The notes under the pieces: generated by a model | Seen by the model: the letters and a program-made list of their open reading frames with translations, nothing else | Databases searched by the model: none | Told to the model about the DNA's origin: nothing | Shown here: piece by piece, positions 3,259 to 24,323 of the stretch | Position numbering within the stretch: the first letter of the stretch is position 1 | Layout: each line of letters opens with the position of its first letter | NCBI GenBank assembly: GCA_029955215.1 | Contig: GCA_029955215.1_4351.1 | Reading direction: 5' to 3' (one strand) | Length of the DNA: 42,897 bases | From: a phage | Position numbers and translations under genes: made by a program

Positions 3259-3695
3259 CTACTATCGCGTTTGACGGAAAGACAATGGCCTGTGACACCC
3301 GTGCTGTTTGCGGGAGTAACTGTTACAGCACAGACACTAAGATATACGAGAATGATTTCTCCGTTATTGGGGTGGCTGGTGATGCGGGGGTCAGCACTAT
3401 GCTTATAGATTGCCCGTATATCCTCCAGGCCAGACCATATGACTTCGATTTCGAAGCCCTGGTATTCGTGAAAGACGCAGAAAAGGTGTATAAAGTAGCG
3501 TTTTATAAATCGTGGGATTGTGCCCTTAGTTCGGTTATTCCGGTTGCCGATAGCTTTTCGGCTGTGGGGTCTGGCTCCCCTTATGCTCTGGCGGCTATGT
3601 ATTTAGGTAATACGGCAACACGTGCGATTACTGTAGCCGCACAATTTGACACTAACACCGGTGGTAAGATTATTACCAAACGACTATTAGGATAA
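3255..3695 (+). CDS. HslV/proteasome-beta-like Ntn-hydrolase family protein (146 aa)
   Basis: N-terminal MTTIAFDG (Thr directly after Met) and internal AVGSGSPYALAAM align by eye with E. coli HslV MTTIVSV... / AIGSGGPYAQAA. Confidence 0.6.
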   Translation: MTTIAFDGKTMACDTRAVCGSNCYSTDTKIYENDFSVIGVAGDAGVSTMLIDCPYILQARPYDFDFEALVFVKDAEKVYKVAFYKSWDCALSSVIPVADSFSAVGSGSPYALAAMYLGNTATRAITVAAQFDTNTGGKIITKRLLG

Positions 3696-4063: not shown

Positions 4064-4328
4064 GTTATTCTGGTTCGGCGGTATGCTGGCAATTGGAGGC
4101 ACATCGCTGTTTAATGTATACCACCCCAGCGTTGACGACGGGTTATTCGGCCGGGTGCTCTATATCCTGACTGCTATTGTCTGCGCCGCTGGGTGTATCC
4201 ACCTGTTACAGGGCAGCATGTCACCTACGTTGCCGGAGACATTAATCGCATTAGTTGCGCTGCGTCAGGTTCGTCAGGCGTGGCTGTCATACGGAGGACA
4301 TAAGCGTGTCTCGAAACATTTCAGATAA
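4056..4328 (+). CDS. second small membrane protein of lysis cassette (holin/antiholin-like, 90 aa)
   Basis: ATG 4056 after GAGGAGG RBS; two predicted TM segments; ORF track start 3975 is probably too far upstream. Confidence 0.5.
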   Translation: MNELFWFGGMLAIGGTSLFNVYHPSVDDGLFGRVLYILTAIVCAAGCIHLLQGSMSPTLPETLIALVALRQVRQAWLSYGGHKRVSKHFR

Positions 4329-4794
4329 TGGGTTGCATTTTACCGCTGCGTTCGAGGGATTCCGCGGCACTGCGTATCGCGCGACACCAAACGAGAAGTA
4401 CCTGACTATTGGTTACGGAAGTTATGGCCCGCATGTTAAGGTGGGACAGACCATCACGCCTGGTCAAGGCCTCCTGTTACTGAATCGCGATATGGCTAAG
4501 GCCGTAGCTGCGGTTGACGCAGCAGCACACCATTCATTGACACAGGCTCAGTTCGACGCAGTGTGTGACTTGGTTTATAACGCAGGCGCTGGCGTGATTG
4601 CAGCTACTACAGGCACTGGTAAGGCGCTACGCTCAGGCGATATTGCGACGTTGCGGGCTAAGCTGGCACTATTCATCAACCAGAACGGCAAACCATTACT
4701 TGGCCTGCGCCGCCGTACCGCCGGTCGTCTGGCGCTGTTCGACGGTAAACCGTGGCAGGAGGCGGAGGCTATCGGGCGCGCGGTGAAAGGTTGA
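4306..4794 (+). CDS. endolysin, phage lysozyme (GH24, lambda R / P22 gp19-like)
   Basis: TIGYG..., QAQFDAVCDLVYNAG and LRRRTAGRLALF resemble the P22 gp19 / lambda R lysozyme family; GTG 4306 after GGAGGA RBS (start uncertain). Confidence 0.8.
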   Translation: MSRNISDNGLHFTAAFEGFRGTAYRATPNEKYLTIGYGSYGPHVKVGQTITPGQGLLLLNRDMAKAVAAVDAAAHHSLTQAQFDAVCDLVYNAGAGVIAATTGTGKALRSGDIATLRAKLALFINQNGKPLLGLRRRTAGRLALFDGKPWQEAEAIGRAVKG

Positions 4795-17257: not shown

Positions 17258-17670
17258 TGGGCTACTTTGAGGACTTAACCAAAGCGTTTGATGTGCCGTT
17301 GGTGGCCTTCGGGACCGCAAACGGCATCAGGGTTGCGCTTGAAAATATCGACGCGCCGACGTCAACCGATACGCCGTATCTGGCGAGTTACATGTTGCTG
17401 GCAGATACGGAACAGGCGGATTTGTTCTTCACCGAGCAACGCTCAGGTGTTTATCAGGTCAACATTAACTACGCGTCGGTGAAAGGTAGCGCGCCAATCA
17501 ATAAAATGGCAGACTTACTTAACACGGTGTTTAAAGCAGGTAAGTCATTTTCACGTAACGACATCTGCGCCGAGGTTCAATCAGTTAGCCTGGGGCCGCT
17601 GATTGTAGAAAACGGATGGGCCAAAAGACCATTGTCAATTAACTTTATTGCATTCACCAAGAGGCTGTGA
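17257..17670 (+). CDS. tail completion / neck protein (putative)
   Basis: ATG 17257 overlapping upstream TGA; position before major tail protein. Confidence 0.45.
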   Translation: MGYFEDLTKAFDVPLVAFGTANGIRVALENIDAPTSTDTPYLASYMLLADTEQADLFFTEQRSGVYQVNINYASVKGSAPINKMADLLNTVFKAGKSFSRNDICAEVQSVSLGPLIVENGWAKRPLSINFIAFTKRL

Positions 17671-17672
17671 AT

Positions 17673-18839
17673 ATGGCTACAACTCCTTTTAAGGGCGCGA
17701 ATACCGCGCAATTCTATGTGGCGGAAGTGACCCCGGGCGTAACACCAAGTAACCCGGTATGGTCGCCGTTGCGTAGCACTGGCGGCGTTCCTGCCGTAAC
17801 CCGCGATGCGCTGACTTCCAACGAACTGGACGGCAGCCGTGAAACTACATCCATCCGCACTGGCAATAAGCAGGTAAGCGGGGAGTATGCCATCGAACTT
17901 AGCTCTCGTAGTCAGGATGATTTCCTGGCTGGCGCGATGACTTCTACGTGGCAGGATGGGGTAGAGATTACGGGTGCCGAAATTACTGTCGCCCCCGCAG
18001 GTAAAACATTCACCCGCGCTGCCGGTAGCTTCATTACTGACGGTGTAGAAGTTGGTGACCTTATTGCGTTCACCGACTTAACCGGCGACAACGCAAAACC
18101 GTTTATCGTGACCGCGGTTTCTGCTCTTGTAGTTACGGGTGCGGGCATTCAGCACACGCTGACAGCAGAGACTGTAACCACCGACGCTAAAACTGGCGAT
18201 AAACTGGAAACCGGTAACGCATGTAAGACGTTCTCCATCCTGACATGGTTCAAAGGACAGTGCGGGAACCCTGACGCGTACATGTTGACCAAAGGCGTGG
18301 AAATCTCCGGTTTCACCATTGAACAGGCCGTAAACGCGATGGTGACAGGCAGCTTCCCGTTCATCGGCCTGAGTCAGGAGATTCTTACCACGCCGCCGTC
18401 TGGCTCTGATTTCTCTCAGGTGACGTTCACGGACGAGCCGTTCTCTTCTGTAGATGTGTCTGTGTTCGACGGTTCTACGCCGTTGCGTTGCGATACTCTC
18501 ACTATCACCAACGATAACGGTGCTTCCGCGCAGTTCGAACTCGGCAACAGTAGCGTCGCGTTCGTGGAACGGGGGCGCGCAGCTAACACCTTTTCCATCT
18601 CCGGTAAGCTGTACGACATGACGATGATTCAGAAGTTTATCAACGAGCAGCAGGTAGAGATTAACTCTATTCTGGCGGGGGTAAACGGGGCTATGTCTTT
18701 CAGTTTGAAACGTGCGGAACTTACGGCGGTTACGCCTGAGATTGGCGGACCTGAGTCAATCACTCAGTCCATTGAAGGCCAGGCTACTGGCAACCAGTAC
18801 CAGTCGTCTATCGTGATTCAACGTATCACCTACGCATAA
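17673..18839 (+). CDS. major tail protein
   Basis: About 389 aa, position before chaperone/tape-measure genes, followed by strong terminator. Confidence 0.7.
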   Translation: MATTPFKGANTAQFYVAEVTPGVTPSNPVWSPLRSTGGVPAVTRDALTSNELDGSRETTSIRTGNKQVSGEYAIELSSRSQDDFLAGAMTSTWQDGVEITGAEITVAPAGKTFTRAAGSFITDGVEVGDLIAFTDLTGDNAKPFIVTAVSALVVTGAGIQHTLTAETVTTDAKTGDKLETGNACKTFSILTWFKGQCGNPDAYMLTKGVEISGFTIEQAVNAMVTGSFPFIGLSQEILTTPPSGSDFSQVTFTDEPFSSVDVSVFDGSTPLRCDTLTITNDNGASAQFELGNSSVAFVERGRAANTFSISGKLYDMTMIQKFINEQQVEINSILAGVNGAMSFSLKRAELTAVTPEIGGPESITQSIEGQATGNQYQSSIVIQRITYA

Positions 18840-18843
18840 AACT

Positions 18844-18868
18844 AAGGCCCCGAAAGGGGCCTTTTTCT
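18844..18868. terminator. bidirectional rho-independent terminator
   Basis: aaggcccc-gaaa-ggggcctt followed by tttctt; convergent gene ends on both sides. Confidence 0.8.
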
Positions 18869-18870
18869 TA

Positions 18871-19044
18871 CTAATTTTTGAAGGGCATTTCATAGAAATT
18901 AGTTAACTGGCCTCGGTCACTTCGTTCTGTCATTTCTTTAGAGGCCTCTTCCTTACTACCGACGGCATAAATATCAACCCACTCGTCCCATTCTTCGTCG
19001 TATACACGGATTACATATATTGTTTTCATAATATTTTCGCTCAT
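18871..19044 (-). CDS. hypothetical small protein (about 57 aa)
   Basis: Last gene of minus-strand cassette; start chosen at internal ATG; overlaps 18974-19267 in another frame. Confidence 0.35.
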   Translation of the reverse strand: MSENIMKTIYVIRVYDEEWDEWVDIYAVGSKEEASKEMTERSDRGQLTNFYEMPFKN

Positions 19045-19267
19045 CAATATTATCCCTGTACTCCCGTAACTTCTCCAGACTCTCAATTGCTTCCGCTAAG
19101 TCGGTTCCTGTGTCCTTGTGCCCCCGCAAGCCCATACACAATAGCTTCTTCAATGCGTGCTGTAACGCCGGGTCGCGGATGTCGAAGGCACGTAGCACGT
19201 CGTAAACGTCTACTGTCATAGTGCTGCCGTGAGTGTTTGTCATTGTGCGGTTGTATTTTGAAGTCAT
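18974..19267 (-). CDS. hypothetical protein (97 aa)
   Basis: ORF downstream of HNH gene in minus-strand cassette. Confidence 0.45.
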   Translation of the reverse strand: MTSKYNRTMTNTHGSTMTVDVYDVLRAFDIRDPALQHALKKLLCMGLRGHKDTGTDLAEAIESLEKLREYRDNIDERKYYENNICNPCIRRRMGRVG

Positions 19268-19280
19268 AAATCAATCTCCC

Positions 19281-19751
19281 CTACTCATGGTTTTCATGAA
19301 AACCGTATTTACTCTCGGCGGCTTTACGCGCGGCAACCGCTACATCAAAATCGTCGTAAAGCCCTAAATGCACTTGTTTGTAGTTAACTTTTATAAACGC
19401 GCGCCACTTACCCGCGGCTTTGTGGAAACTTACACCTGTAGCCCCGGATTTATTTATCTTTCTCATAGTTTTATTTTTACTGCCCCCTGTATTGTCGGTG
19501 GCGCGTAGATTTTCTATTCTATTGTCTAGCCTGTTATGGTTTATGTGGTCTATTTGAGTTTTCCTGTCTAAGTCGCATTTATTATAAAGACACCATGCTA
19601 TGCGGTGGACATACACTGTTTTACCACCCATACCGCAGCACAGATAGCCTCTTACACCAACCGTACCAACCTCAGCACCAGTAGATATCCTGGTAACCTG
19701 CCCCGTCTCAGGGCAGTATTTAAATTGTTTTGAAACATCAAGATACTTCAT
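19281..19751 (-). CDS. HNH homing endonuclease with AP2-type DNA-binding domain
   Basis: H-N-H region IDHINHNRLDNRIENL; C-terminal GVSFHKAAGKWRAFIKVNYKQVHLGLYDDFDVAVAARKAAE resembles an AP2 domain; AT-rich gene. Confidence 0.8.
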   Translation of the reverse strand: MKYLDVSKQFKYCPETGQVTRISTGAEVGTVGVRGYLCCGMGGKTVYVHRIAWCLYNKCDLDRKTQIDHINHNRLDNRIENLRATDNTGGSKNKTMRKINKSGATGVSFHKAAGKWRAFIKVNYKQVHLGLYDDFDVAVAARKAAESKYGFHENHE

Positions 19752-20878
19752 CTTAGCATCTCCGGTGAGATTGAAAGCCTACCTACTTCCCCGAACTCTG
19801 AACTATAGGTTATGACATTAGCGGACCTCTTAGACATCCACCCGCCGCGAGAAGCATATGCATCTTTCGCCGCGAGAGTGCGATGTTGTTCCACTACCAT
19901 ATTCCTACTTTCTACAATCTTTTGATGGTGGAGATGCCCGACATGTGCGTAACTGTACTCGCTTTCGCCAAATGCTTTTCTGAACTTAGCTATCATAATG
20001 GGTTCGACCACCTCAAACCGGCATTTATGCCCGTGTGTAAAGAACAGTGTCGTTTTACCGTGTTGCACCATCTTGTAAACATCCGGCGACGTATCGACGA
20101 ACACACGCGGCTCATTGTCGTACAGCGTACTGAACATCTCAGCCAACCAAATCATTCCGCTTTCGTCGTGGTTCCCTTGCACGATAAGCAAGCGAACATT
20201 TTTATGCTTAACCAGCGCCATACCAACAACACGGCGTACCATACGAATCATGTAGCGGACTAGTTTCTGGTAGCGCGTGTCCGCATCAAGAACATGACCG
20301 CTCGCTGGCGTAACGGCATCCAGACTATCGAAGTGTGCGAAGTCCCCGAGCAGATTAATGACTCCTGTTCCTGCATCTGGCGCTTTCTGGAATGCCGCAT
20401 CGAACCATCGGGAGAACAGGTCTTCAGCAATCTTCATATCCCAGTCGTCGCCGCTCTCGTCGGCCCAGGCCAGCATGCCGAGATGGAAATCAGATACCGT
20501 GTAAAGATTGAGTAGTTTGTCGTCACGTTTGGCTCGAGTCGCTTTAACAGGCGCAACTGGGGTAATCTCTGACTTCATGCCTTCAACCACGGCTTTCATC
20601 AACTCAACCTGACGTTCGGCATCGGTGTCGGTCTTAACCCATTGCAACTTAGTGTTGCCGAACTCGTCTACCAGTGACGACGTTCCTTTAATCTTGTAGC
20701 CGTCTGGCACAAGGTGACTAACATCACGACCATGACCTACGCCTTTCTTCGCCAGCTTCGCTTTACGGATACGAATAACGCGGTCTGAGATGCCGTATTT
20801 ACGGGCAATGTCGATATTCTTCATCCCGACGTTCAATTCTTCCTGTAACTGTTCGTCGGTTATTTTCTTCTGGGCCAT
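19748..20878 (-). CDS. HTH domain fused to calcineurin-like metallophosphoesterase (SbcD/Mre11-like motifs)
   Basis: N-terminal DIARKYGISDRVIRIRKAK; motifs SDFHLG, GDFAHFD, GNHDE, THGH, GHLHH. Confidence 0.7.
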   Translation of the reverse strand: MAQKKITDEQLQEELNVGMKNIDIARKYGISDRVIRIRKAKLAKKGVGHGRDVSHLVPDGYKIKGTSSLVDEFGNTKLQWVKTDTDAERQVELMKAVVEGMKSEITPVAPVKATRAKRDDKLLNLYTVSDFHLGMLAWADESGDDWDMKIAEDLFSRWFDAAFQKAPDAGTGVINLLGDFAHFDSLDAVTPASGHVLDADTRYQKLVRYMIRMVRRVVGMALVKHKNVRLLIVQGNHDESGMIWLAEMFSTLYDNEPRVFVDTSPDVYKMVQHGKTTLFFTHGHKCRFEVVEPIMIAKFRKAFGESEYSYAHVGHLHHQKIVESRNMVVEQHRTLAAKDAYASRGGWMSKRSANVITYSSEFGEVGRLSISPEMLR

Positions 20879-20916
20879 GCTTACTTCCTCGTGTTTAGGA
20901 TTTGTCCTATACTAGC

Positions 20917-21108
20917 TCACTTCTCGTTAACATTCGAGTTGCACGCCCAGATTAAAATAAATACCCACGGCAGCAGAACCCAACCAAGAAACAGGTTAGC
21001 CATGAATATCGCCAACTTCGCTTTATGGTTACGGAAATATGCAACCAGGAAAGGCGCGAAATAAGCGAGCAGTGCAAACAGAATTAAGGAAACTGGTAAA
21101 CTTGACAT
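20917..21108 (-). CDS. small two-TM membrane protein, superinfection-immunity (Imm)-like
   Basis: YFAPFLVAYFRNH...LGWVLLPWVFILIWA; start at second ATG with aagggg RBS (ORF track start 21123). Confidence 0.5.
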   Translation of the reverse strand: MSSLPVSLILFALLAYFAPFLVAYFRNHKAKLAIFMANLFLGWVLLPWVFILIWACNSNVNEK

Positions 21109-21138
21109 TTTAAACCCCTTCATTGTTGGTGTAAGTGA

Positions 21139-21167
21139 ATAGTACCCTATTATATTGGGGTGTGCAA
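21139..21167 (-). promoter_or_regulatory. sigma70-like promoter, class I (TTGCAC-N17-TACTAT) driving minus-strand cassette
   Basis: Minus-strand reading ttgcac-accccaatataataggg-tactat. Confidence 0.6.
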
Positions 21168-21275
21168 GTAATGTGATAGAATAATTTTGCGCCTAGTGTC
21201 GCACACGAAAAGCGGGTGGTTCCCGTCTGGCGCATTTATCGATAACCTGTAACCTCTTAACCAAAGGATTAAAGA

Positions 21276-21695
21276 ATGAAACTTTCTGATTTTTATTTCG
21301 AAGAGAAAGCACTGGTAGGCAAGAAAATGCCGATTCTGCTGCCGAATGGCGAAGACTCCGGCGAGTGGCTTAATGTTGTAAGCCCTGATGCGGATGCCGC
21401 CGTTAAAGCGGGGCGTGCTTTCATTATCGCGTACCGTCGCGGACTGGCGCGTTTTGAAGAACTGGAAAAAACCGCTAAAGCCTCCGGCGACTATACAGAA
21501 TATAACCTGGCGATTAATGAACTGGCGGAAGACCTCAACCGGCAACTCGCGGCTGAAGTCGTAAACGGCTGGAGCTTCGACGACGAGCCTTTCTCTAAGG
21601 AAGCGTTTAACAAATTGCTCGACCAGTTCAAAGGGCTTGGAACCCAGGTAGCCGCGTTCCATAACGCTGAGCGCAAAGCATTACAGGAAAAGTAG
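21276..21695 (+). CDS. tail assembly chaperone (putative)
   Basis: Position immediately upstream of tape measure; acidic 139-aa protein. Confidence 0.5.
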   Translation: MKLSDFYFEEKALVGKKMPILLPNGEDSGEWLNVVSPDADAAVKAGRAFIIAYRRGLARFEELEKTAKASGDYTEYNLAINELAEDLNRQLAAEVVNGWSFDDEPFSKEAFNKLLDQFKGLGTQVAAFHNAERKALQEK

Positions 21696-21727
21696 ACGCG
21701 CTGTACAGGTTCGCCACCTACGAGTTT

Positions 21728-22060
21728 GTGGATAAGCATAAAATCAGAGAGTTTGATTCTATAGCTGACGGACATGAACAGGCGCTTATCGCGATGGGTG
21801 TAATCGATAAGAAAAAACGTGCAGCGCGACGGGGTGGGCCAGAATGCCCGCCCCTTTTCATATCCACCTTTGAGACGTATTGCGACATTAAGTTTACGCG
21901 ACACGTGCGCGAGGACGCTGTAGTATTGTTTGCAAGAGAATCCGTTACGTGGCAAGACCTGAAAGCCTATCTCGACGTTACACAAAAACAGCTTAGCCTG
22001 TTCGAGATAGACATTATCATGGGCTTAGAAGCAATCTTTGAAGGTAGAAATAATGGCTGA
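21728..22060 (+). CDS. hypothetical protein upstream of tape measure (start uncertain)
   Basis: GTG-initiated ORF; no frameshift connection to 21276-21695 found. Confidence 0.35.
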   Translation: MDKHKIREFDSIADGHEQALIAMGVIDKKKRAARRGGPECPPLFISTFETYCDIKFTRHVREDAVVLFARESVTWQDLKAYLDVTQKQLSLFEIDIIMGLEAIFEGRNNG

Positions 22061-24323
22061 TATCGCTAGCTTGATAGTACGAGTATCCGCAACCGGCGTC
22101 GATAAAGTCACATCACAACTGAACGGGCTTACTAAAGCCGCAGGCGCTGCGGCTGCCGCCGTTGTCAGCCTGGAAACCGCTAAGCAGGTGTTCAGTGCGC
22201 TGGTGGACTCCCAGCGAAACTTCGATAAGCTGAACTCCGGCCTCATCACAATGACCGGGAGTGCTGAGAACGCGGCTAAGGCTTTCAGCGTCCTGCAACA
22301 GTTCGCGAAAGAAACCCCGTACGGCCTCAACCAGGCGGTGGAAGGCTTTACTAAACTTGTAGCCCTCGGCCTGAACCCCAGCAAAGAGGCGTTAATCTCC
22401 TACGGCAACACCGCCGCTGCGATGGGTAAAGACCTTAATCAGATGATTGAGGCCGTGGCGGACGCCAGTACATTTGAATTTGAGCGACTGAAAGAGTTCG
22501 GTATTAAGTCTTCCCAACAGGCAGATACCGTTTCGTTCACGTTCCGCGGCGTAACGACCACAGTTAAGAAGAACTCCGAAGAAATTCAGAAATACCTGCT
22601 AAACATCGGTAACACTGATTTCGCCGGGGCGATGGAAACGCGTTCGAAAACCCTTGACGGGCAGTTATCTAGCCTCGCGGACTCCTTTGACGGCCTTGTA
22701 CTTGCGGTGGCGCAATCAGGTTTCGGCGACGCCGTAGGTGAGCAAGCTGCGACAGCGGAAGATGCCATCACGGCCCTAACCGATGCCATCGCGTCTAATG
22801 AGATAGCAGCCACGCTCCAGGATTGGGTGACACTGTTCAATGAATCGTTCAAGTTTATTTCTGACGCTTTGAACGATCTGGCATACGACACCGAGGACAA
22901 ATCCGTGGATATGTCCGACTCGCTGGGGACTATCCCGGACGCTATTCGTGAGTGGTTGCCTGACATTCAGCAGACATTCCACGAGGTTATTGCGTGGTTC
23001 CAGCGCATTGACGATTACGCGGTCGCGTTAGGCCAGACCCTCGCCGACGTGTTCGACCCGAGCAAAACGGCAGCGCTAACATTTAAAAACCTGACCGCAG
23101 AGGCCGACGCCGCATACGCCGCCAGCATAAAACGCGCAGAGGCCGAATCACAGGCTATCACCAACAGGTCTAAGCAGCGTAAGAAAGAAATTGAGGAACA
23201 GCGCAAGCAGTATGACGAGCGCAAGAAGCAAGAAATTGACTTAGCCAGCCTTGTTAATAAAAAGAGCGGAAATGGTGGAACCGGAAATACCAACGACAAA
23301 GACGCGAAAGCCGCCGCTAAGAAAGCGGAGCAATTGCGTAAACAGGCCCAGGATTATCTCGACACTTTGGCCCGTCAGAACAACGACGAATTAAAGGCTA
23401 TTGACGCACAGGAACAGCAGAAACTGGCTAAGGCAAAAGAGTTCTACAACCAGGGCGCGTTGGCTCTGAAAGAATACGAGCAAGCAAAAACGGCTATCGT
23501 CCTCGAAGCCGGACAAGCACGGCAGGAAGAGCTGGATAAGCGAGAGAAAGAACGGCAGGAAAAGCAGCAGAAAGGTGAAGACTTCATGGCTCAGATTATG
23601 GGTCAGAATGCCGCCGAGCTTGAGCTTCTGGAAATTCAGGAACAACAAAAACTGGACGTTGCGGACCGATACCGCGAACAGAACCTTATTAATGAGGAGC
23701 AGTACCAGGCTGCGGTTAATGCCATAAATGACCAATATGCTTTGAAGCGCGCCAACGCTACAGGTAACGCTTTCGGGATGATGGCGGATAACATGAAGGC
23801 CTCACTAGGGGAGGCGTCGTCCGCGTACAAAGCATTCGCTATTGCTCAGGCCACAATCGCCACATACACCTCCGCTATTGAGGCTTATAAATCAGCGTCC
23901 GCTATCCCCGTGATTGGCTGGGTTATGGGGCCAATTGCCGCCGCCGCCGCCGTAGCCGCCGGTATGGCTAACATAGGTAAGATTCGTTCGGCTCGTGAAC
24001 AGGGTGGTCAATTATCCGCGGGCCAGATGTCCACCATCGCTGAACGCGGTAAACCGGAGGTTATCATGCCTGCGGGGGCATCGCGTGTGCGCACCGCGCA
24101 GCAGATGAAAGAGATTATGGGGCAAAACGGCGGAAACTCCGGCGGTGACAGCGTGACAATTGTCAACAACACCACCGGGCGAGTTGATTCTGCGGTAACA
24201 GAACGTGATGACGAAGGGCGTTTACGTATTATAATCAGTGAAACAGTATCGGCGGCGTTACAGGACAGCAACAGCGCAATCTCTAAGTCACGCCGTGCTA
24301 CACGAAACCAGCCGGGGTATTAA
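22053..24323 (+). CDS. tape measure protein
   Basis: 756 aa, long coiled-coil Ala/Gln/Glu/Lys-rich stretches, hydrophobic GWVMGPIAAAAAVAAGM segment. Confidence 0.85.
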   Translation: MADIASLIVRVSATGVDKVTSQLNGLTKAAGAAAAAVVSLETAKQVFSALVDSQRNFDKLNSGLITMTGSAENAAKAFSVLQQFAKETPYGLNQAVEGFTKLVALGLNPSKEALISYGNTAAAMGKDLNQMIEAVADASTFEFERLKEFGIKSSQQADTVSFTFRGVTTTVKKNSEEIQKYLLNIGNTDFAGAMETRSKTLDGQLSSLADSFDGLVLAVAQSGFGDAVGEQAATAEDAITALTDAIASNEIAATLQDWVTLFNESFKFISDALNDLAYDTEDKSVDMSDSLGTIPDAIREWLPDIQQTFHEVIAWFQRIDDYAVALGQTLADVFDPSKTAALTFKNLTAEADAAYAASIKRAEAESQAITNRSKQRKKEIEEQRKQYDERKKQEIDLASLVNKKSGNGGTGNTNDKDAKAAAKKAEQLRKQAQDYLDTLARQNNDELKAIDAQEQQKLAKAKEFYNQGALALKEYEQAKTAIVLEAGQARQEELDKREKERQEKQQKGEDFMAQIMGQNAAELELLEIQEQQKLDVADRYREQNLINEEQYQAAVNAINDQYALKRANATGNAFGMMADNMKASLGEASSAYKAFAIAQATIATYTSAIEAYKSASAIPVIGWVMGPIAAAAAVAAGMANIGKIRSAREQGGQLSAGQMSTIAERGKPEVIMPAGASRVRTAQQMKEIMGQNGGNSGGDSVTIVNNTTGRVDSAVTERDDEGRLRIIISETVSAALQDSNSAISKSRRATRNQPGY

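Follow-up and report, generated by a model that had tools for sequence, protein, structure and literature searches.

The block described here lies between the tail-tube gene and the tail-chaperone gene in 42,897 nucleotides (nt) of phage DNA (NCBI GenBank assembly GCA_029955215.1, contig GCA_029955215.1_4351.1), a stretch called the window throughout. Five open reading frames (ORFs) were found on its minus strand at this position, while all flanking genes are on the plus strand, as had been noted in a preliminary description made from the letters of the window. In the order of transcription they encode a small Imm-like protein (imm, 20917-21108), a 376-amino-acid (aa) fusion of a helix-turn-helix (HTH) domain and a metallophosphoesterase (MPE; 19748-20878), a 156-aa HNH endonuclease (19281-19751), and two small proteins, here p76 (18974-19267) and p57 (18871-19044). 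Profile matches agreed with the identities first given to the first three genes, except that the AP2 part of the endonuclease remained below its cutoff. Both small ORFs are genes as well, although the first, annotated as a 97-aa ORF, is really a conserved 76-aa gene that has lost its stop codon. The block is the sole minus-strand unit inside approximately 21 kb of plus-strand structural genes, and the sign of the GC skew flips over it. The ratio of nonsynonymous to synonymous polymorphism (pN/pS), pooled against relatives, was 0.12-0.21 in all five ORFs, with 0.21 for imm, 0.12 for p76, and 0.15 for p57, and all five are therefore real genes under purifying selection.

A minus-strand block was present at the same junction in K1G, Ro145clw, EC3-1, Bas74, ZCEC5, XY1, and the Jerseyvirus f18SE, that is, in every annotated relative examined. 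The census comprised 75 IMG/VR loci encoding relatives of the MPE, typed by tblastn, of which 49 had a Guernseyvirinae context and the rest belonged to other lineages. The order chaperone (-), MPE (+), and tail tube (-) was kept in all 49 Guernseyvirinae loci, down to 55% MPE identity, and genome papers report imm in all Jerseyvirus genomes (PMC8425127). Because the block stands at this junction in all relatives examined, across genera, it is an ancestral operon and not an inserted island. The view that it is an accessory cassette inserted into the tail-gene module could thus not be maintained. The same applies to its description as an undescribed system, since its genes are annotated in GenBank/RefSeq (e.g., K1G ORF18-21). 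Synteny was kept in all relatives examined, and the functions given to the MPE, p76, and p57 are predictions. On the genomes compared, the block is an ordinary, already catalogued feature of Guernseyvirinae, and only the HNH endonuclease and p57 behave as sporadic accessory elements.

Published equivalents of the block are K1G ORF18-21, Ro145clw genes 10-14, EC3-1 gp30-33, and f18SE gp20-22. They share its tail-tube/chaperone position, orientation, promoter region, and terminator, with Imm 98% and the MPE 95-100% identical. The 156-aa HNH endonuclease and p76 are present in EC3-1 and Ro145clw as in the window, while Ro145clw carries a second HNH gene (162 aa) in place of p57 and K1G carries a split polynucleotide kinase-phosphatase (PNKP) where the window has the HNH endonuclease, p76, and p57. 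The exact gene set of the window was otherwise seen only in IMG/VR locus L034. When positions 17600-22100 were compared by megablast with 50,697 phage records, 404 were matched. The best matches were the Escherichia phages vB_EcoS-Ro145clw and Ro145c2YLVW, with 99.3% identity over 96% of the query, followed by other Kagunavirus genomes at ~88-93% and by several hundred mostly Salmonella-phage records at 80-90%. Among the matches listed (H1-H38), both flanks were matched on one strand and the middle was variable. By these similarities, the window is essentially a whole, circularly permuted genome of the genus Kagunavirus, subfamily Guernseyvirinae, collinear with the complete K1G genome.

The MPE matched phrog_704 with E = 1.7e-164. 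Its catalytic motifs are all intact (D130-x-H132, GD179, GNH237D, H282, and GH315-x-H317). Among 15 sequences reaching down to 27% identity, D130, H132, D179, N236, H237, H282, and H317 were invariant and H315 nearly so, and all eight catalytic residues were invariant in an alignment of 84 sequences. The GNHD form of motif III is that of Mre11, SbcD, and Icc-type diesterases. The AlphaFold2 model based on the 84 sequences reached a predicted local distance difference test score (pLDDT) of 80 and showed an N-terminal three-helix bundle, a beta-hairpin with a helix, and then the MPE core. The three helices of the N-terminal HTH are sigma-70 region-4-like, and homologues carry Sigma70_r4-type or HTH Pfam domains. 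Mre11/SbcD were the nearest structural neighbours of the model, not lambda phosphatase or Clostridium thermocellum Pnkp (CthPnkp). Foldseek against the PDB confirmed the MPE fold and did not discriminate sub-families, and a search of BFVD returned uncharacterised viral MPEs only.

The fold of a binuclear metallophosphoesterase and the motifs DxH, GD, GNHD, H, and GHxH are shared with Mre11/SbcD, including T4 gp47 and T5 D12. The MPE of the window differs from these proteins in having neither a capping domain nor a Rad50/SbcC partner; it carries an N-terminal module of HTH and beta-hairpin instead, possesses its own invariant loop (T190 ... D200-x-R202), and shows no significant sequence similarity to them. 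Its assignment to the Mre11/SbcD family was rejected, as sequence similarity, capping domain, and partner ATPase were all lacking. The loop, residues 188-202 (VTPASGHVLDADTR), is specific to the family, with T190, D200, and R202 invariant; AlphaFold confidence is very low there, and it may serve these proteins in particular for substrate binding or oligomerisation. The MPE is read here as a DNA-tethered, Rad50-independent, Mre11-like nuclease.

The MPE family has members in 2,039 phage records, from phages of Escherichia, Klebsiella, Salmonella, Vibrio, and Campylobacter and from roseophages, and at least 5,740 proteins matched it at E <= 1e-8. It is kept in Drexlerviridae, Dhillonvirus, Guernseyvirinae, vibriophages, and roseophages, mostly phages described as lytic. 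This spread across several phage families does not agree with the moron nature first proposed for the central gene of the block. In distant phages the gene sits among genes of DNA metabolism, next to thymidylate synthase and dCMP deaminase in DSS3phi2, DNA ligase in Campylobacter phage Los1, and a methylase and a helicase in PHB17. A Campylobacter phage homologue has no HTH. In Dhillonvirus JL1, an MPE that is ~73% identical is followed at once by the genes for the small and large terminase (L009:3492-6701) and is not part of the tail module, and the order of MPE followed by large terminase was also seen in L049-L061, where the MPE is equally similar (~73%). Two mosaic MPE genes (L068:4501-5655 and L069:4501-5655) have a first ~97 residues (HTH and linker) near-identical to the window or f18SE type and a far more divergent catalytic domain, with 55-60% identity over the whole protein. 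The pattern of their sequences implies recombination at the domain boundary of the MPE.

Imm matched PF14373 (Imm_superinfect) with 48.3 bits (cutoff 27.9, E = 9.3e-13) and phrog_1039, "immunity to superinfection", at 1.1e-22. Two transmembrane (TM) segments were predicted at residues ~4-24 and ~33-55 of 63 aa, with hydropathy means above 2.0 in a 19-residue window. While the ORF extends to 21123 (68 aa), the ATG at 21108 (63 aa) is the likelier start because an AAGGGG Shine-Dalgarno sequence is located 6 nt upstream and the same start is annotated in K1G. The T4 Imm protein is 83 aa long. The Imm of the window resembles it in the PF14373 match above the curated cutoff, in being small with two predicted TM helices, and in being a gene of a virulent phage. 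It differs in being shorter and in that its relatives carry two alleles differing in TM1, or secreted proteins instead. The block would thus contain a gene for superinfection exclusion, as was first proposed, on the basis of the PF14373 match.

In the 49 loci the MPE was the constant part of the block, with three exchangeable positions around it. The interval from the promoter to the MPE (slot 1) was occupied by Imm allele A in 15, by Imm allele B in 18, and by other genes in 16 of the 49 loci; in 15 of these 16 the occupant was a signal-peptide or single-TM protein. Allele B is 71% identical to allele A, with the main difference in TM1. A ~108-aa protein with a signal-peptide-like N-terminus (phrog_14165) was encoded in 12 non-Imm loci; the remaining occupants were three other signal-peptide proteins and one single-TM protein, and L078 showed no envelope signal. 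Examples of non-Imm loci are L016:4110-4436, L040:4109-4438, L045:1752-2114, L046:4096-4419, L047:2065-2403, and L037:~4170-4462. Judged by these occupants, the operon seems to open with a swap slot for small envelope proteins, and since the slot keeps exchanging such proteins, a function in exclusion would be fitting for it.

The HNH endonuclease matched PF13392 (HNH_3) with 38.2 bits (cutoff 24.8) and phrog_99 over its full length (6.6e-54), while its match to AP2 (PF00847) reached 19.7 bits and stayed below the cutoff of 33.3. Its HNH motif IDHINHNRLDNRIENLR is intact. Relative to Bas74, the minus strand of the window holds 480 bp extra (19268-19747), as defined by BLAST breakpoints, junction sequences, and local GC, with ATGA, a 4-nt repeat, at both ends. 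The insertion lies at the ATGA overlap of the MPE stop and the p76 start; the ATG of the HNH gene overlaps the MPE stop codon in the same way (ATGA), and the insert brings its own Shine-Dalgarno sequence, GGGAGA, for p76. GC is locally lower at the insertion (0.42-0.44). The gene is missing at the same junction from Bas74, ZCEC5, and K1G and was found in 3 of the 49 census loci. Because of the intact motif, this sporadic distribution, the locally lower GC, and the precise 480-bp insert, it is regarded as a selfish free-standing homing endonuclease, inserted without harm to either neighbouring gene and predicted to cleave DNA. Phage free-standing HNH endonucleases (HNH_3 plus AP2-type, phrog_99) are alike in domain make-up, in intergenic insertion that preserves both neighbours, and in presence/absence polymorphism between near-identical genomes, and the window gene differs from them in its AP2 match under the Pfam cutoff. 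No other HNH paralogue was found within the window.

The position after the MPE (slot 2) held p76 in 27 of the 49 loci and a HAD_PNKP-type phosphatase with a P-loop kinase-like protein in 18, and never both. A split PNKP is located at L002:2769-3808; that of K1G consists of a HAD phosphatase (PF25109, 72 bits) and a P-loop protein. Genes for a polynucleotide 3'-phosphatase and 5'-kinase are missing from the window, which has no homology to K1G from 18875 to 19738. The possibility that p76 is a remnant of the K1G P-loop gene was rejected (BLASTP E = 0.19, no DNA homology), and for this reason the idea that the HNH insertion had deleted PNKP genes was rejected as well. p76 and PNKP are thus read as two alleles that occupy a single slot in alternation. 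Whichever gene comes next to the MPE, its start codon overlaps the MPE stop in an ATGA, and translational coupling to the MPE is therefore preserved. At the distal end of the block, p57, the second HNH (162 aa), or an Ant-like protein was found.

Alignment of relatives placed the canonical part of p76 at 19040-19267. Its stop codon is lost in the window, with CGA at 19039-19037 where TGA or TAA was present in 11 of 11 relatives checked; the loss was seen only in the window. It adds 21 residues, so that the protein has 97 aa instead of 76, and creates a 71-nt overlap with p57, in whose frame the substitution is synonymous. Either a recent mutation or a sequencing error could account for it. Homologues of p76 occurred in 774 phage records across many genera. 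The last gene of the block, p57, has a start that overlaps the end of p76, encodes an acidic protein (52-57 aa, pI 4.4), and is restricted to Kagunavirus, where 23 phage records contain it with amino-acid identities as low as 63%.

The block is followed on its own strand by an intrinsic terminator hairpin (18844-18863), which was scored on both strands and is common to the tail-tube transcript (+) and the block (-). Its folding energy, given with the z-score relative to shuffled sequence, was -21 kcal/mol (z = -3.4) for the minus strand and -16.6 kcal/mol (z = -2.2) for the plus strand. Its U-tract is strong for the plus-strand transcript of the tail tube and weaker for the minus strand. A bidirectional terminator had been proposed here beforehand, and scan and folding agree with it. 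The tail-tube gene (17667-18839, +) matched PF18906 (E = 1e-37). On the other side, the chaperone gene (21276-21695, +) begins a region in which two chaperone ORFs match PF08748 and PF23812 and are followed by the tape-measure gene.

The divergent intergenic region between imm and the chaperone gene (21124-21275) contains two overlapping minus-strand promoter candidates (21139-21177) that came from a consensus scan and from reading the sequence. The sigma-70 promoter first proposed at 21167-21139, TTGCAC (21167-21162)-17-TACTAT (21144-21139), agrees with the consensus at 7 of 12 positions, while the scan preferred ATCACA (21177-21172)-17-TATAAT (21154-21149), with 10 of 12. The position of the former is conserved, with TTGCAT-17-TATTAT at the corresponding site in f18SE. 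In an alignment of eight genomes, the region was almost invariant across seven Kagunavirus genomes and ~80% identical in Jerseyvirus f18SE. From the conserved promoter region, the terminator on both strands, and the flip of GC skew, the block is predicted to be a self-contained transcription unit, as had been suggested before. In K1B4, another Kagunavirus, RNA-seq grouped imm by timing with genes for DNA polymerase and methylase and apart from its structural neighbours (PMC12645636). In K1G, the polymerase and methylase genes are on the minus strand. This time course gives limited support to separate transcription of the block. A conserved hairpin cluster (21188-21234, RNAalifold) is located upstream of both the promoter of the block and the chaperone gene, with two compensatory base-pair changes in the f18SE hairpins, and might serve to regulate the tail-gene transcript.

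Taken together, the block is rather probably a leftward imm-mpe operon of all Guernseyvirinae, serving superinfection exclusion and DNA metabolism, that is independently transcribed and was invaded by a homing endonuclease. Host RNA polymerase would transcribe it from a promoter of the sigma-70 type in the conserved region between imm and the chaperone gene, independently of the rightward structural-gene transcripts, and transcription would end at the hairpin that also terminates the tail-tube transcript. Imm would insert in the inner membrane and, like T4 Imm, block DNA delivery by secondary phages into the infected cell. The MPE, in structure of the Mre11/SbcD type, would be a binuclear-metal phosphodiesterase that is anchored on DNA through its N-terminal HTH and works without Rad50/SbcC. 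It most likely cuts or resects DNA, in the breakdown of host DNA or on intermediates of phage replication or recombination. The genes after it appear to be coupled in translation via ATGA overlaps and to form an exchangeable slot, which is here filled by the widespread 76-aa helical protein, not the K1G-type split PNKP, together with the Kagunavirus-specific acidic p57. Inserted exactly at the MPE/p76 junction, the HNH-AP2 gene probably drives mosaicism at this end of the operon.

The nuclease reading has a functional precedent in Gp48 of mycobacteriophage A10ZJ24, an MPE that is reported to be expressed early, to act as a phosphodiesterase, to disrupt host genomic DNA, and to counter defence (PMC12287305). 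Gp48 is likewise a stand-alone phage MPE with the five motifs; in the text consulted it is not described as fused to an HTH, it comes from another phage lineage and host, and it is likened to the MPE of the window by function.

Several results weigh against this interpretation. Promoter-like matches in the intergenic region numbered 7 against 5.5 +/- 2.4 expected, which is not above chance, and the promoter is therefore supported by conservation. The temporal classification in K1B4 is crude and labels imm as "late" (PMC12645636). The MPE stayed under the Pfam gathering cutoffs, with 19.4 against 21.5 for Metallophos and 25.6 against 27 for Metallophos_2. A phmmer search of the PDB gave no match to it, and the best matches of a 15-sequence profile in the PDB, Thermotoga maritima Mre11/SbcD (E ~0.5) and FixJ for the HTH, were not significant. 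The model ends with the MPE core and has its extra domains at the N-terminus, so that a C-terminal Mre11 capping domain is absent, and no SbcC/Rad50-like gene is annotated in the block or in the collinear K1G genome. Literature searches found no characterised member of the HTH-MPE family. Neither p76 (no Pfam family) nor p57 (no Pfam, PHROG, or PADLOC match) has a functional assignment.

A bolder version of this reading is conceivable, though rather improbable. The HTH-tethered MPE would be a DNA-targeted nuclease by which the phage takes over its host or counters defence, whether through destruction of the host chromosome or by acting on defence-damaged ends, p57 would be an unrecognised anti-defence protein, and the three slots (for envelope proteins, for p76 or PNKP, and for p57, HNH, or Ant) would make up a Guernseyvirinae hot spot in which exclusion and counter-defence genes are shuffled.

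The kinase-phosphatase pair of the relatives suggests another function, in which the MPE acts as a 2',3'-cyclic phosphodiesterase or 3'-end trimmer together with a 3'-phosphatase and a 5'-kinase and mends tRNA or DNA broken by defence nucleases. The window would then hold a reduced version of this end-healing counter-defence module, with p76 replacing the kinase-phosphatase. Such healing by MPE domains is known from Clostridium thermocellum Pnkp and lambda phosphatase (PMC2190708), the PF25109-type phosphatase and the kinase-like protein stand directly after the MPE and are coupled to it in the 18 loci that have them, they exclude p76, and proteins of PHROG "ATPase" families end in p76-like domains. 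The explanation is nonetheless unlikely. Phosphatase and kinase are both missing from the window, and the annotation of K1G lists neither an RNA nor a DNA ligase. While the MPE occurs in more than 2,000 genomes, the full PNKP pair stood beside it in none of the non-Kagunavirus loci examined, among which L072 alone has a HAD-type phosphatase, without a kinase. The structural proximity to Mre11/SbcD, and not to lambda phosphatase or CthPnkp, also speaks against it, and a DNA-binding HTH would be unexpected in a tRNA repair enzyme.

The preliminary description had favoured a moron or anti-defence island. A recently acquired one, in which membrane protein, phosphoesterase, and endonuclease act jointly as a new system, is very unlikely, even though the block has its own predicted promoter and terminator, Imm represents a classic moron-type function, gene exchange is concentrated at the distal end, and p57 is small, acidic, sporadic, and genus-restricted, like many anti-defence proteins. 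The fixed position of the block across genera and its composition, which is not foreign, contradict a recent arrival. Its components vary independently, Imm being replaced in 16 and the 156-aa HNH endonuclease present in 3 of the 49 loci, and the MPE occurring outside Guernseyvirinae in contexts with no Imm detected; the three proteins are therefore not an obligate system. PADLOC defence models applied to the block gave nothing meaningful, the sole match being that of the HNH endonuclease to PbeC (E = 0.0075). Least probable is a mainly regulatory HTH-MPE, with sigma-70 region-4-like DNA binding controlling the adjacent divergent promoters, e.g., in the switch to tail genes, and the phosphoesterase as a sensor or signal-degrading module; homologues with Sigma70_r4, Sigma70_r4_2, or LysR-type HTH Pfam domains, a weak PHROG match to "late transcriptional activator", and the unusually conserved, hairpin-bearing intergenic region beside the gene point that way, against catalytic metal ligands that are invariant across the family, quite different genomic contexts in other phage families, and the homologue lacking the HTH.

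As a genomic feature the block matters little, being a standard leftward operon of Kagunavirus and Jerseyvirus whose genes annotation pipelines already name. The remaining interest is in the function of the HTH-MPE family, with its thousands of members and none characterised in the literature searched, and its role is directly testable as it is carried by small, tractable BASEL phages such as Bas74. The envelope-protein swap slot, with two Imm alleles and unrelated secreted proteins, offers a natural panel for superinfection exclusion among therapeutic-candidate phages.

No match was obtained in an Rfam scan of the whole window, and an NCBIfam search gave no significant match. A single-sequence AlphaFold model of p76 (pLDDT 65, predicted template modelling score 0.34) was too poor to use. 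The core of p76 (residues ~19-69) recurs as the C-terminal part of longer proteins, including those of the PHROG "ATPase" families. It likewise has a homologue in the C-terminal part of a hypothetical protein of 252 aa from Nonagvirus JenP2 (L090:1916-2674), which is encoded between QueE and QueC in a 7-deazaguanine DNA-modification cluster. The stem of the terminator hairpin is invariant among relatives, while its 4-nt loop is inverted in some (TTTC vs GAAA), and in Ro145clw the hairpin is duplicated, with one copy on either side of the extra 162-aa HNH gene (L001:2745-2764 and 3273-3305). Because of the inverted loop and the doubled hairpin, the sequences suggest that gene gain at the distal end is mediated by recombination at the terminator palindrome.

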